This document shows positions 1,160-60,870 of a DNA stretch of 64,000 nt, piece by piece. A model generated the notes under the pieces. That model saw nothing but the letters and a program-made list of their open reading frames with translations, ran no database searches and was not told the origin of the DNA. A program made the translations under genes and the position numbers. Positions within the stretch are counted from its first letter, which is position 1. Each line of letters begins with the position of its first letter. Origin of the DNA: Chiloscyllium plagiosum (Eukaryota); the NCBI RefSeq assembly GCF_004010195.1, contig NC_057753.1, forward strand, positions 3,441,514 to 3,505,513. The letters are read 5' to 3'.

Positions 1160-1229
1160 CTGGAAGACCAATATCTGCAAGGACTGGATAATAAATGGCA
1201 AAGACCAAACCTCTTGGTATCTCATGCAT
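1160..1229 (-). CDS. Exon 1 of GPR139-like class A GPCR (gene A); exon 2 lies outside the window to the left
   Basis: 70 nt encoding MHEIPRGLVFAIYYPVLADIGLP+G, ending at a phase-1 donor CCAG|GTAAAA. Same length, phase and IYY..L..IG.P motif as exon 1 of genes B and D. No matching exon 2 seen in 1-1159. Confidence 0.85.
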
Positions 1230-1280: not shown

Positions 1281-1327
1281 TTTATACATGGTTGCATATG
1301 CATTTCAGACTTCAGGGAGTTAATTAG
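1281..1327 (-). promoter_or_regulatory. Gene A proximal promoter: TATA box plus homeodomain/EBF-like composite
   Basis: TATAAA at 1286-1281 and CTAATTAACTCCCTGAAG at 1327-1310. Same arrangement upstream of genes B and D. Confidence 0.65.
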
Positions 1328-16424: not shown

Positions 16425-17335
16425 TCAACACTTCAGAAGTTTAACAAGCAATCTCAGTGGATATTTCAAACAATTCTTTAACTCGTCTCTGAATTTATTC
16501 TGGGTTCCCGCATAAATAAAAGGATTTATACAGGAACTCAGAAACTGAAGCATATACCCGGTTTCCTCCAGGATGAAGGACGACTTGCTATAGTCAGAAA
16601 CTGAGTAATAAGTAACTTTTGCAATTCGGACATAGAGCACGGTTACAAAATATACCGAATAAAGCAGAAGAAAACTACCTGAAATGCAAAAAAGTAAAAT
16701 AATGGACTTTTTCCGTTTCTCCACCTCTGAGTCACTCGGATTCTCTCCATTGCTCTGGGTGCGAAGTCTCCTGCGGGCTCGATTGGCCGCTAAAATATGC
16801 CTGACAGTCAGAGCATTGAGCAGTAAAATCAGAATGAATGGGAGGCAGGGGACGAGAATGGATCGAATCAAATCGTATGCGGCCCAGGCCTGTGAGGTGT
16901 TAGATACTAATTTTGGAACGCAGAACCAGGGAACGCCATTAATTATGTACAGTGGTTCAAATACAAAATAGAAAAATGCATTTTTAAAACAGCTCAGCGT
17001 GCAGACTCCCCCTATAACCCACTTCGCTGTAACTTCTGTACAGTATTTTAGTTTCAGCTTCTGGCAACAAATGGCAACAAATCGATCAAAGGTGAAAGCG
17101 ACCGTTAACCAGGCAGAACTATCTATTACTGAATAAATAAGGACAACGCGGAGACTGCATATCGGTGTGATGAATAAGAAACTGAATGGAAGATAAATGC
17201 CAGCAGTCCGGTTTATAATCACATTAACTATAATGACCAAGAGATCTGCTAACGCCATGGATACCACGTAGGAAATGATACATCCAGAGAGACCACATCG
17301 TCTTCGTTGTAAGATTATGATCACTGCCAAATTTG
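16425..17335 (-). CDS. Exon 2 of GPR139-like class A GPCR (gene B)
   Basis: Acceptor TTCTCTCTGTTACAG|CA; 911 nt open frame covering TM1b-TM7 with MALADL, C3.25 (TPIC), FTFDRFVAIC, WFC and INPFIY. With exon 1 gives 981 nt = 326 aa. Confidence 0.95.
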
Positions 17336-18775: not shown

Positions 18776-18845
18776 CTGGTATCCCGATAGCTGCAAGCAA
18801 ATTATAATAAATGGAAAACAACAGACCTTTTGGTGATATGTGCAT
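18776..18845 (-). CDS. Exon 1 of gene B
   Basis: MHISPKGLLFSIYYNLLAAIGIP+G with donor CCAG|GTAAAG. Phase matches exon 2 (G|CA AAT = A-N). Intron 17336-18775. Confidence 0.9.
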
Positions 18846-18894: not shown

Positions 18895-18929
18895 TTTATA
18901 CATGAGTCAAGCTCAAGGGATTTAATTAG
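18895..18929 (-). promoter_or_regulatory. Gene B proximal promoter: TATA, AP-1-like site, homeodomain/EBF-like composite
   Basis: TATAAA 18900-18895; TGACTCA 18909-18903; CTAATTAAATCCCTTGAG 18929-18912. Confidence 0.7.
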
Positions 18930-19330: not shown

Positions 19331-22300
19331 GCACCCTCGCGTTGTTCATCCGATAGTTTCCAGATCATATGATTTTGGTACTGCTCCGACAGTCTCCTGT
19401 GTTGTGTGTTCTGAAGCATTATTCATTATGATCTTATTGGCCGGAAGAGTAGGTTCCAAGGATTGGATGGCCGACTCCTACTTCCAATTGATGTATTCAT
19501 GTATATGCTCCTCTTCAAGGTATTTACAACGTCTCAGGTGTAAGCCCAGCCATGACATATTTTCATGGGGCTTCAGACTGAAAGAAATGAGCCTTTATTC
19601 TCTGTCTTTCAATGTAACCCCTAATGAGTCTTTGTGAAAGACGTGCTCAGGTTTAAGAAGCAAATCGTGTTCTAAACAGGGTAAGAGATCGAGCTTAATT
19701 TAGTTAAAGGGGGAGCGAAAGAACGATTGATTGATTGATTGATTAATTGTTATATGTATCTTGCTGCAAACTTGACTGGTTGGAGTAAGCAAAGTAGAAG
19801 GAAGGCAGTGGGTAGAATTCAGAAATCTAGGCAGCAAATCATGAGTAGAAACCAGTTGGTCCTACTTTACAGTTCGAGAGCTCGTTCCAGTCCTGACCTC
19901 AATCTTGGTTCAGCATGAATCACAATGCACACGCAGCCACCTTCTTACCCAGATCAGACTTTATACTTTGCACATCAATATACATGCTTTCTACTCAACC
20001 TCCAAGATGTTACGACCTGCCTATGGAGCAAGTTGCATTTGAGCTCTGGTCAAATCTGCTTAGTAGTGGAGACACTACCACTGCACGACAAACGTTTTAC
20101 TGCAGTGTATCCAGCATTGTAAAGAACTGGCAGCAAATTTTAGGGCTTTGATACAGTTTGGCGCCTTAGTTCGAGAAAATGCAATTAACAATATCCACAT
20201 TCAACATGTAAAAATGAGTGGTCACGAGAGCAGCCTAAGAGATTGGCGAATGTAAGGAGAAAAGTTTGAGATAGATTAGTCGATGATATTTCACGCAGGT
20301 CCAGAAAAATGCTTCACATGGGGAGAACAATATAGGAAAAGGATACTTTGCATAAATGGAAAGAAGTTCATCCACATAAAATTCCTGACAGGCATAACTC
20401 CAGTGAATCATTTGATGCTATTGTAAAATGAAACGTGTGAAACGTGTGAAACAAATCATCTATGTCGTGTTTCCCCGTTTGAAATGGTGGTAAGCTCTGC
20501 CACTTCTGAGTCAAAACATTATAGTTTCAAGCGCTATTCTCGGACAGGTGTGTCATGGCAATGCTTGTAGTTGCTTTTCAGTTAGGTTGCTAAACTGAAG
20601 CAAAATCGAAACCCAATGCATATAGAGACTCTGCACCAATTTAATGGAGAGCTGTTGTTCATATTACAATACAATGAACAACATGCGCATGGTTCAAAGA
20701 TTAAGCATTACAACAATGAGCACCTCGAGGAAATGTAGATTCATTTAGTATGTGATGGTTAACTCAACAAACTGCAGCAATACACAGCATAGCGAAGTTT
20801 ATATCATGGCAGGGAATGACAATACTCCCACAGTAAGAACATCCATAACAGCAAGCAAATTAATTTATAGCATGTCACCGCATTGTCAATGCCTGTTACT
20901 GTAACAACACAAATAACGAACAAGAAAAGTTTATTGTGGTGCAGAGTCTCTCACAGTGGCACACTACCCATAACTGTGGCAGTGTCCATATCTCTGGGAC
21001 GGCTGGCTCGGATTCACATTACCCAATGCTCCAGGGGTTTGTACCTCTGAACAGATTTATTCGTTAAATGAACGTGGAGCTTAACTTTCATATGACTTTG
21101 CATGAAAATATATGTACACTGTTCGTATCAATAACAGACCAGAATTACGTTGAAAGCATGAGTCGGTAACAAGCAGTGCAAAAATACCAAATGTAGAGAG
21201 GACGTCGTTCTGGAGTTTGCATGTTAGTTGATCAAAAGGAGAATGATTTATAACTTGAATGTTAACATACTGTTTCTCTCAAGACATTTTAATACCACTA
21301 TGAGAAATATGAAATAGACAAATATAATGAAAGCTCATTATGTTCATGAAGAATAAATGATTAAATGGAGAGTTGAAATGGATAGTTGGAAAAAAGTTTG
21401 ATTTTTGGGGGAGGGACTATATCATATTTGTTAATGGTATAAAGAAAGGTTTGTCTTAGTAAATAGACAAGTGATCTACTTAAATGTGGAAATGACATCA
21501 CTACCACTTAGAAAAATATGACAAAATGGGAGGTATGCAAATCCTTACATAACTAGCAACAGTTACCATAACTATACGATGTTGCAAGAACAGGATAGTA
21601 AATTGCAAACAATAAGCGTTTTGGTGGTGACTGCAGTTCTGGTCAAAGTTCTACACATCTCCTTCATCATGTTCAAAGGTGGTCATATTTACTCTTCATG
21701 TCTTTTTCCATACAGAAAATTAGTTGGTTTTGCCTGTTCATGACACTAATTGAAAGGGTAAAAAATTAACACAAACTTGTGAAATTATGGCTGGTGCTGC
21801 CAGTGTGTTTTATCAAATGGATATTTTGGAACTGCATTTTTCCCAACATTGAAACTCACAGAGACGACAAAAAAGCTAGTCAGGCTTTTCCTTTGTTCAT
21901 CCAAAACAAACAAAAACAACGTTCAATGAAAAATTGGAGATATTTCGTGAAATTCAACTTTGGAACCGCAGAATTATTACTTTTAGTTCCTTGACGCTGA
22001 ATTCAATGATCATTGCACAAGTTACAACTAAGCATGAACATGTTGATTAAATAAGTTGGTAAATTCTAAGTTTAACTGACACGATAAGTGCTTTCACACG
22101 GTCTTCTGTGTTTTCGTTGTGGAGAAATGCAGTTCAGAAATGTTACAATTAGTCCTCAAATGCCATATTTAGCTTAATTTTGGAATAAATTAGTGCAGTC
22201 CAGATTAATTATATATTTTGTGTACGGGTTCTCATGATGCTGGTGGCCTTGATAATGGAAAGGTTCACTCCTGCATGGTTGCACCCAATTCCATTTCAGC

Positions 22301-23167: not shown

Positions 23168-23410
23168 AACAACGCTCTCCAATTAATCTCAACTTGTTGT
23201 CTTGAAAAAAAATCAAACAATTTCCATTGATCATCGCTTCCCTCAATTTATATTTTTCAGTGAACAATTTACGTTTTAGTTCCACTTCAACAACGCTCTC
23301 CAATTAATCTCAACTTGTTGTCTTGAAAAAAAAATCAAACAATTTCCATTGATCATCGCTTCCCTCAATTTATATTTTTCAGTGAACAATTTACGTTTTA
23401 GTTCCACTTC
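23168..23410. repeat. Near-perfect tandem duplication, 121/122-bp unit
   Basis: 23168-23288 repeated at 23289-23410, differing only by one A in a poly-A run. Confidence 0.95.
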
Positions 23411-23719
23411 ATCCTTCATATACATCTGATCCCCTGTGTCACCTCACATGCCGTAGCCATGTCCACATTTCTTGGTTGTTCGAGTCCTAAGCTTTCATTT
23501 TGCCTGACGTGTCTATCAGTGCACTAACTACTTCTATGTATGTAATGCGTTTACTTGAAAATTCCACCCTCCTCACGCCTTTATTTGGTATATCTCTGGA
23601 AATTCGAACTCCTTCCCAAATTTGATTTGCCCTGGTCTGACCATAGACCACGTCCCATTATTCACTGCAATTCCATTACCTCCAGATGTACTTGTCACCA
23701 GAGTTTTCTGCCAATTTGA

Positions 23720-38471: not shown

Positions 38472-39377
38472 TTATTGACATTCGAATATTTTAATGAATA
38501 AGTTCAAAGCAAATCTCACTCCATTCTTCAATTCATGTCTAATTTTGCTCTGTGTCATAGCATATATAAATGCGTTAACGCAATAACTGAAACATATATC
38601 TGTTTTTTTTTCAAATCAAACGTGAAATTATGCAAAATGGATCCCGAAGAATAAGTAATATTCACAGCTCTTACACAGAGAATATTTGTAAAACATAACA
38701 GATATAATTGAATGAAACTGCCCCAGATGGCAAAGAGTAAAATAATGGACTTTTCCAGCTTCTTCATCTCTGGGTCACACTGAATCTCTCCATTGTTCTG
38801 AAGGTTGAGTCTCCTATGGGCTGTATTGGCCAAGGCAATATATCTCACGGTCAGCACGTTTAGTTGTAAAATTAGAATGAAAGAGAGACACTGACTTAAA
38901 ATTTAACAGATCCAGTCATATGCAGCCCAAGCAGGTGATGTATGACATTTATCCCTTATGCGACACAGCCAGGGCACATTGTTAATACATACCTCGTTTC
39001 AAATTCAAAATATGTGAAAATGCTTTTCGTACAGCACAAAGTAGGCATTATTCCTATCACCCATGCTGCCACCTTCTTGGTGCAATATTTTACTTTAAGG
39101 TTCTGGCAGGATATAGCCGCAAGTTGATTAAAGGTAAAAGCAACAGTTAACCAGGCGGAGTTGTTAATAATTGCCATTTTTAATGCAGCACGGAAACTAT
39201 ACACTCGTGTGATAGAAAGGAAGTTGGATTGGAAATAACTCCCAGTAATCCTATTTAAAATCACAGCTGTGACCATGACCAAGTGATCTGTCACTGCAAT
39301 TGACACCAAGAAGCTGGTGATGCATCCAAACAGACCACAGGCTCTTCGAGACAGGATTTCAATCATTGCTCGATTAG
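38472..39377 (-). pseudogene. GPR139-like GPCR pseudogene (gene C, exon 2 only)
   Basis: SRRACGLFGCI, SAWLTVAFTF, LKVKYCT, LTVRYIAL and KSIILLFAI in different frames. DRF changed to NQL; acceptor reads TTACAA| instead of AG; frameshifts near 38990 and in TM7. Confidence 0.9.
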
Positions 39378-39606
39378 TTGTAAGTTGTAAATAATGAGTT
39401 TCAATCAGAACATTTGTGTTTCTGATCACCATCAAGTTTCCCATTTAACAGGATTTTTTTTAAAAAGAGAGAAGAATTGAGAAGAAAGTCATAATTGGGA
39501 CATTATTCCTTCCATAAGGAACAATTGATTTTTGAATTAAACATTGACACATAGATTAACCAAATTAAGGATGCAACAAGGAAAAATATTTGGAAATCTT
39601 TTTTTT

Positions 39607-58429: not shown

Positions 58430-59340
58430 TCAACACCTTAAAAGTTTTAATAGCAATCTCCACGGATGTTTTAACCCGTTCTTTAACACGTCCCTGAATT
58501 TATTCTGGGTCCCCGCATAAATAAATGGGTTGATGCAGGAACTCAGAAACTGAAGCATATACCCAGTTTCCTCCAGGATAAAGGATGACTTACTATAGTC
58601 AGAAGCTGAGTAATAAGCAACTTTCGCAATTCGGACATAGAGCACAGTTACAAAAAATACCGAATACAGCAGAAGAAAACTGCCTGAAATGCCAAAGAGT
58701 AAGATAATAGATTTTTTCCTTTTCTCCATCTCTGGATCAGTCTGATCCTCTCCATTGCTCAGGATTCGGAGTCTCCTGCGGGCTCGATTGGCCGCTAAAA
58801 TGTGCCTTACTGTCAGAGCATTGAGCAGTAAAATCAGAACGAATGGGAGGCAGGGGGCAAGAATGGAACGAATCAAATCATATGCAGCCCAAGCCTGTGA
58901 GGTACTAAATGCAAATATTGTAACACAGAACCAGGGTACATTATTAATTGTATACAACGGTTCAAATATAAAATATAAAAATGCATTTTTAAAACAACTC
59001 AGCGTGCAGACGCCCCCTATAACCCACTTCGCTGTTAGTTCTGTACAGTATTTTACTTTTAGCTTCTGGCAACAAATGGCCACAAAGCGATCAAAGGTGA
59101 AAGCGACCGTTAACCAGGCAGAAATATCTATTACTGAATAAATAAGGACAACACGGAGACTGCATATTGGTGTGATGAATAAGAAACTAAATGGGAGATA
59201 AATGCCAGCAGTCCGGTTTATAATCACGTTAACAATAATGACCAAGAGATCTGCTAGCGCCATGGATACCACGTAGGAAATGATGCACCCAGAAATACCA
59301 CATCTTCTTCGGTATAAGATTGCGATCACGGCCAAATTTG
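58430..59340 (-). CDS. Exon 2 of GPR139-like class A GPCR (gene D)
   Basis: Acceptor TTCTCTCTGTTATAG|CA; 911 nt open frame with DRF and NPFIY; colinear with gene B without indels. Confidence 0.95.
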
Positions 59341-60715: not shown

Positions 60716-60785
60716 CTGGTATCCCGATAGCCGCAAGCAAATTATAGTAAATGGAAAACAACAGACCTTTTGGTGATATGTGCAT
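60716..60785 (-). CDS. Exon 1 of gene D
   Basis: Encodes the same 23 aa as gene B exon 1 (2 synonymous differences); donor CCAG|GTAAAA; intron 59341-60715. Confidence 0.9.
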
Positions 60786-60835: not shown

Positions 60836-60870
60836 TTTATAGATGAGTCAGACTCAGGGGATTTAATTAG
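60836..60870 (-). promoter_or_regulatory. Gene D proximal promoter: TATA, AP-1-like site, homeodomain/EBF-like composite
   Basis: TATAAA 60841-60836; TGACTCA 60850-60844; CTAATTAAATCCCCTGAG 60870-60853. Confidence 0.7.

Follow-up and report, generated by a model that had tools for sequence, protein, structure and literature searches.

The promoters of a very large family of GPR139-like receptors in the shark Chiloscyllium plagiosum carry a cassette, TAATTR-NN-TCCC-NN-GAG, in which a homeodomain site and an EBF-like site stand at a fixed spacing ~21 nt before the TATA box. Judged from its sequence, this cassette is a real family-wide promoter element under purifying selection, and it is the best sequence-level hint that the family is chemosensory. 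We consider it probable, with a probability of about 0.6, that homeodomain and EBF factors drive the family in olfactory neurons, which would make it an unrecognised chemoreceptor family.

The window, by which we mean the whole 64,000-nt stretch of DNA that was analysed, holds three copies of the composite on the minus strand, in the promoters of the receptor genes designated A, B, and D (Table 1). This is as an earlier note on the same DNA had reported, and the TAATTA-to-TCCC spacing is, as it also stated, identical in the three genes at 2 bp. A search for CTAATTAANTCCC with at most one mismatch found 3 matches in the whole window, which are the A, B, and D copies only; the chance mean in shuffled sequence was 0.38, and 3 matches were reached in 1 of 100 shuffles. 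A TATAAA does lie near the ATG in all three genes, with the distances from the end of the box to the ATG corrected to 51 nt (A), 49 nt (B), and 50 nt (D). The placement of the composite just upstream of the box is right for B and D, where TCCC starts 20 nt before it, and has to be relaxed for A, where the figure is 32 nt and a 12-nt insertion separates the composite from TATAAA in comparison with B and D. The claim of three promoters stands as a count of copies, but since B and D arose by recent duplication (identity of 77.6% over 2.8 kb and of 75% over the 200-nt promoter), the window alone supplies two independent ones.

Table 1. Positions of the promoter composites, TATA boxes, and exons in the window
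Feature	Position	Strand	Remarks
Gene A composite	1310..1327	-	TAATTA, 2-bp spacer, TCCC-TG-AAGT; matrix score 26.3
Gene A TATAAA box	1281..1286	-	composite 12 nt farther off than in B and D
Gene A exon 1	1160..1229	-	exon 2 open, just left of the window (locus L061)
Gene B composite	18912..18929	-	TAATTA at 18928-18923, 2-bp spacer, EBF-like TCCC-TT-GAGC at 18920-18911; matrix score 25.9
Gene B TATAAA box	18895..18900	-	49 nt before ATG; predicted from sequence
Gene B exon 1	18776..18845	-	70 nt, 23 codons + 1 base, GT donor
Gene B exon 2	16425..17335	-	frame open to stop; 7tm_1 receptor
Relic promoter and exon 1, no ATG	21567..21723	-	composite decayed (score 2.4), TATA gone
Gene C, exon-2 pseudogene	38478..39390	-	frameshifted
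Gene D composite	60853..60870	-	TAATTA, 2-bp spacer, TCCC-CT-GAGT; matrix score 25.3
Gene D TATAAA box	60836..60841	-	from sequence
Gene D exon 1	60716..60785	-	70 nt, GT donor
Gene D exon 2	58430..59340	-	open frame; 88% identity to gene B

Neither an exon 1 nor a composite was found for the gene C pseudogene. Several genes of the B clade have, 2-3 kb upstream, a dead promoter and exon 1 that was co-duplicated with them; the window relic is one of these, and others are found at L061 and L063. The window relic has lost the motif, which is partly retained in two co-duplicated relics (scores of 12.5 and 14.1), an observation that is anecdotal only. A 121-nt direct duplication with 99% identity at positions 23168-23411 of the window may be an assembly artefact.

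Genes A, B, and D are two-exon rhodopsin-class receptors with a likeness to GPR139, and their earlier description as members of a non-OR GPCR family is borne out. The only Pfam match of gene B is 7tm_1, the nearest solved structure is human GPR139 (PDB 7vug, E=4e-10), and no OR, TAAR, V1R, or V2R name occurs among its 120 listed homologs, which were compared by name. Every named protein among these best 120 is a shark protein, mostly a “probable G-protein coupled receptor 139,” the top one being from the whale shark (86%), and the product of gene B exon 1 matches the N-termini of the named shark homologs. A phase-1 intron after the G-x-P of TM1 is common to GPR139 and the shark family. The shark genome nevertheless has a GPR139 of its own (exon 2 of 320 aa, L185; also L186) outside the expanded clade, and a GPR142-like gene is present as well, separate from the family. 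Orthology of the family with GPR139 was ruled out: it is a multicopy clade of its own, distinct from the GPR139 at L185/L186.

A tree of 42 rows unites the proteins of sharks, skates, and rays in one clade (92/89) that is sister to a salamander gene (96/90); coelacanth and teleost relatives come next, and GPR139 lies outside on a long branch. The family has expanded in sharks, skates, and rays, amphibians having about one copy per species, and the single-copy relatives of amphibians, sturgeon, coelacanth, and teleosts are its nearest outgroups. An apparently unnamed third GPR139-like gene (P0240, P0223, P0234, and P0309) is found in amphibians, coelacanth, sturgeon, and some teleosts. The RefSeq models called “probable G-protein coupled receptor 139” in sharks and rays are members of the family under names that are automatic only, and no description of their function, tissue, or promoter was found in the literature searched. 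Several public models (P0008, P0009, and P0019) have intron-like sequence at the N-terminus in place of the true exon 1, and the family is therefore partly mis-annotated. A literature search of largely open-access papers turned up no publication on this family or on its promoter, and a term search in genome papers and a review gave no relevant mention of the family.

A search of the shark genome with an exact exon-1-end pattern gave 1,587 matches, compared to 0 for the reversed control, a count that takes in pseudogenes and possibly redundant small contigs or assembly duplicates and that misses variants. A stricter pattern for the subfamily of the window has 106 matches genome-wide. The genes are arranged in tandem clusters with pseudogenes, and by our own count 17 of 140 hits contain stops. 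Described without further interpretation, the variation peaks in upper TM3, TM4-ECL2, upper TM5, and ECL3, mostly on the outer, pocket side of the receptor.

The occurrence of the cassette was scored in 105 exon-1-anchored promoters, all drawn from a single genome and with a bias toward subfamily I on one contig; upstream fetches that contained no exon 1 were dropped (25 of the first 60, and 21 of 32 in a later set, with one more recovered). A metagenome scan for promoters from other species returned 4 hits, which do not resemble exons of the family. The matrix was built from 39 sites, or 38 after a duplicate was dropped, and a score of ≥12 was taken as the cut-off. Among held-out promoters, 46 of 67 reach this score, 30 of them with the site at exactly -87 from the ATG, compared to 0 of 978 background windows drawn from introns and far-upstream DNA and 1 of 67 on the opposite strand of the held-out promoters; the held-out row L122, which represents another clade, was counted as a miss. 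Family-wide enrichment over background, which the earlier note had set beforehand as the test of its proposal, is thus evident. When the training promoters are included, 83 of all 104 subfamily-I promoters pass a score of 12 and 21 fall below it.

The consensus is C-TAATTR-NN-TCCC-TG-GAG-C, and its geometry is as constrained as had been proposed for a fixed-spacing homeodomain and EBF-like element in promoters. The homeodomain-to-EBF offset is 8 in 34 of the 38 promoters in which both sites were called, the EBF-to-TATA distance is 21 nt in 32 of 54 promoters with an EBF call, and a 2-bp spacer gives the best fit in 82 promoters, compared to 7 for a 1-bp spacer. Across the cluster DNA examined, the strict offset-8 pattern has 22 matches in promoters and 1 elsewhere, duplicates included, and the offset-7 pattern has 2 in promoters and 2 elsewhere. 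A perfect YCYC-NN-GRG, a pattern derived from the same promoters, is found at -105 to -60 in 45 of 62 of them, compared to 0.23 per kb of background. Genome-wide, the three-part pattern that includes TATA has 70 matches against 5 for the control; 16 of the 70 are family promoters, from DNA fetched as such, and the other 54 are counted as pattern matches only. About 30 near-identical three-part matches are located at C8:44.88-44.95 Mb, C8:76.80-76.84 Mb, C18:67.46 Mb, C25:53.87 Mb, and on many small contigs, and this recent group, which is outside the fetched promoters, is likely another clade of the family. Simpler patterns stand out less: the 12-base core alone has 508 matches genome-wide, below the 1,441 of the reversed control and so without enrichment, the core with TATA at loose spacing has 31 (9 of them on C44 and 2 on C49) against 50 for the control, and a version of the pattern with a 13-nt gap has 3 against 2.

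The flanks of gene A had been thought poorly alignable to those of B and D, with the motif standing out as a footprint. The flanks are homologous family-wide; the footprint claim therefore needed a rate test, by which it is upheld. We used 62 non-redundant paralog promoters that are <80% identical, together with the 13 motif positions named in the earlier note. The relative rate is 0.57 for the motif, 1.33 for the flanks and intron, and 0.48 for the TATA columns, so that the motif evolves 2.3 times slower than the homologous columns next to it; among 162 windows of the same shape, the best has a rate of 1.00 (permutation p=1e-5, with columns treated as independent). The two spacer bases are fast, at 1.55 and 1.29. 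An ungapped check on 22 promoters chosen by TATA alone gave an identity of 0.65 for the motif, whereas the best other window reached 0.50 and the 5′ UTR 0.45; when all 62 promoters were compared without gaps, no contrast emerged (0.37 versus 0.35), because indels shift the register.

Outside subfamily I, the composite is present at the same spacing in both of the promoters scored (L240 and L251) from the C9 clade, which has ~50% protein identity. The largest subfamily (II) has a degenerate homologous EBF half, and a second EBF-like site lies on the far side of its homeodomain site; its rate test gave 0.84-0.93 versus 1.0 (tree length of 4.2, with 22 of 30 loci anchored) and showed no footprint, the test being weak because the expansion is too recent. 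The L121-L150 loci of this subfamily have a longer N-terminus and a module of HD-EBF-HD-degenerate EBF without a clear TATAAA, and their 5′ leader contains a tandem repeat of ~42 nt that is variable in copy number and very long in L147.

Six promoters of other clades (L254, L259, L260, L264, L265, and L270) are without an adjacent homeodomain site and have a C/EBP- or ATF-C/EBP-like ATGNNG(C/T)AA located 178-206 nt before the exon-1 donor (background, 0.25 per kb). In three of the six, a TATA-like box also follows a perfect EBF-like site at a distance of ~21 nt, and the six may be one clade. C/EBP-ATF-like sites are also reported in the olfactory TAAR enhancers of the mouse, and TGATGCAA from the other-clade promoters is the reverse complement of the TTGCATCA block in those enhancers (PMC8213819). 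In three further other-clade promoters, neither a C/EBP-like site nor an EBF-like site was seen. The true GPR139 and GPR142-like genes, whose start sites are unmapped, have no cassette within ~1.4 kb of their exons (best scores of 2.6 and 6.3), and 0 of 5 V2R-type promoters of this shark have one near the TATA or ATG. The one match among the V2R-type genes, at L230, is a composite-like offset-8 arrangement 787 nt before the search anchor, and the same locus has a near-perfect EBF site ~160 nt before the ATG.

The left half of the cassette is a generic homeodomain site (TAATTA in 22, TAATTG in 6, and TGATTA in 3 of 56 promoters). Many homeodomain proteins are suited by TAATTR, and Lhx2, to which the composite had been attributed, is just one candidate. 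EBF is well suggested as the binder of the right half. The EBF/COE dyad consensus is TCCC-NN-GGGA, and the substitutions seen are symmetric about the dyad, as a dimer site predicts, with the second C changed to T in 6 of 56 and A changed to G in 8 of 56. The cassette consensus shares the eight bases CTCCCTGG with the OMP O/E probe used in the EBF1 EMSA of PMC5608512.

Two other readings of the constrained columns were weighed. The promoters might simply descend from one ancestor, with a motif that has merely not yet decayed, and for this the alignability of the whole 200-nt upstream region across the family, the recent duplication of B and D, and the missing footprint in subfamily II could be adduced; yet slow motif columns sit beside a fast spacer, a result upheld without gapped alignment, and the motif persists in the C9 clade, with its protein identity of ~50%, but has decayed in the ATG-less relic, and we give such passive homology almost no credence. 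It is also very unlikely that factors of another kind bind the constrained sites and that their likeness to Lhx2 and EBF sites is coincidental, as would be the case for a zinc-finger protein that recognises all of the 17-mer or for a dimer on a CTCC-NN-GGAG palindrome. The EBF half is, as the earlier note had conceded, imperfect, with a 6/8 match to the EBF dyad, and a CTCC-CT-GGAG palindrome, one base off, can also be made out in the consensus. The conservation, however, is symmetric about the EBF dyad and not about a center shifted by one (C11 100%, G18 91%, C9 57%), and the spacer evolves at a neutral rate.

The shark element is like the Lhx2/Ebf composite of the mouse Greek Islands (Monahan et al. 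2017, PMC5608512) in design, as described there: an O/E site, in many cases a degenerate one, directly follows a homeodomain site at a stereotyped spacing, and the arrangement is tied to clustered GPCR genes, as are the J element (PMC7804114) and the TAAR enhancers (PMC8213717). By sequence it nonetheless appears to fail membership in that class, and the identity with the Greek Island composite that the earlier note had entertained is not supported. The two mouse sites are given as 1 bp apart (PMC11643329; also the EMSA probe in PMC5608512 as we read it), and a 2-bp insertion is reported to have weakened the competition by the composite in mouse EMSA (PMC5608512). The mouse copies are intergenic and enhancer-enriched, being not enriched in, or depleted from, OR promoters according to PMC5608512 and PMC12547500, whereas the shark composite has a 2-bp spacer and occurs in promoters, one copy per gene, at a fixed distance from TATA. 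The Greek Island class is further characterised by co-binding of Lhx2 and Ebf in olfactory neurons and by trans hubs.

The cassette fits the looser type of promoter known from mouse OR and V1R genes better, as far as its sequence can be compared. O/E and homeodomain sites are reported to mark mouse OR promoters (PMC12547500), O/E-like sites are described in all 39 V1R promoters (PMC3247230), and the promoters of both, like those of the shark family, are AT-rich with O/E and homeodomain sites and TATA near the start (PMC12547500, PMC3247230). In the shark genes, an O/E-like site, a homeodomain site, and TATA all lie within a few hundred bases of the inferred start. The mouse sites, as described, are without a fixed spacing and precede non-coding 5′ exons, whereas the shark geometry is rigid and the ATG lies in the same exon. 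The cassette may thus be a variant, not previously described, of the olfactory homeodomain/O-E logic.

In the mechanism we propose, a LIM or Q50 homeodomain factor such as Lhx2 and an EBF dimer would bind together, cooperatively, and the bound pair, ~45-60 nt before the start, would recruit the TATA machinery, with transcription predicted to start ~25-30 nt after TATA. Each gene would carry its own activating unit in its promoter, and expression would be olfactory and sparse. GPR139 and GPR142 respond to L-Trp and L-Phe, and by analogy the ligands may be small and water-soluble, e.g., amino acids. The olfactory reading is suggested by the homeodomain/EBF pair, which is an olfactory signature, taken together with the size of the family and the few receptors known from the shark nose. 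To our knowledge, only chemoreceptor GPCR families reach such a size, and vertebrate families this large are otherwise nasal. Shark noses are described as having few known receptors and neurons that are all of the TRPC2/Go microvillous type (PMC10116579). Somewhat better than even are the chances, in our estimate, that elasmobranchs possess a GPR139-derived olfactory family of a thousand or more genes with the composite hard-wired into each promoter instead of placed in shared enhancers.

Against the olfactory reading stand the 2-bp spacer, in comparison with the mouse, and the V2R promoters without the cassette, V2Rs being the known shark olfactory receptors. Among four RNA runs without a tissue label, which therefore speak neither for nor against any tissue, X5 gave 95 partial reads, none of them 99% alike and all from paralogs or repeats, and X6 gave 0, and no transcript of gene B was seen in these runs. 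One group of reads, again from unlabelled tissue, was assigned to the paralog L240, whose cassette is intact, or to a second genomic match, L239. Among the top 50 entries listed for a brain-plus-nose library of the catshark there is no GPCR, but no V2R either (PMC11979771).

A genuine homeodomain and EBF promoter might also serve sensory or chemosensory cells other than olfactory neurons, such as trigeminal or dorsal-root neurons, solitary chemosensory cells, the lateral line, or the ampullae, and the family would then be an MRGPR-like or skin chemosensor expansion, a reading that we find doubtful. EBFs act in B cells, other neurons, and fat, and sensory ganglia express EBFs as well as homeodomain proteins that bind TAATTR. 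Sharks are described as having no MAS1-related receptors, which leaves that role open (PMC8455134). The spacing unlike that of the olfactory composite and the V2R-type promoters without a cassette would suit such cells too, but homeodomain and O/E sites near the start are best documented for OR and V1R genes, and family size, by the comparison made above, points to the nose. Decidedly less credible is a non-neural programme, most plausibly an EBF1-dependent one of the B lineage or of other immune cells, with the receptors as diversified immune or metabolite sensors. EBF1 is a B-cell factor, the EBF site is kept more widely than the adjacent homeodomain site, and the ATGNNG(C/T)AA of the six other-clade promoters is C/EBP-like; set against this, subfamily I and the C9 clade both keep the homeodomain half under constraint at a fixed spacing, and C/EBP-ATF-like sites are, as in the TAAR enhancers described above, also olfactory.

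Expression in olfactory neurons, the reading we prefer, would change the picture of elasmobranch smell. The catshark is reported to have 34 V2Rs and 4-9 genes in each other olfactory receptor family (PMC10116579), and sharks have been described as GPCR-poor (PMC8455134). Large noses and a few dozen known olfactory receptors form a paradox, which a family of more than a thousand loci makes testable. If the reading is true, the view that elasmobranchs smell by a few dozen V2Rs would be overturned, the repertoire would rival that of mouse ORs, and a composite in each promoter, at another spacing, would be a second evolutionary solution to receptor choice. The rodent vomeronasal formyl peptide receptors are a non-OR GPCR lineage that moved to nasal neurons through promoter change; they are a handful of genes, whereas the shark family has more than a thousand loci. 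The promoters also constitute a natural series of variants for the study of homeodomain/EBF grammar. Natural variants in spacing occur at L212, L224, and L226, two of them from the C48 cluster, which have a mouse-like 1-bp spacer.
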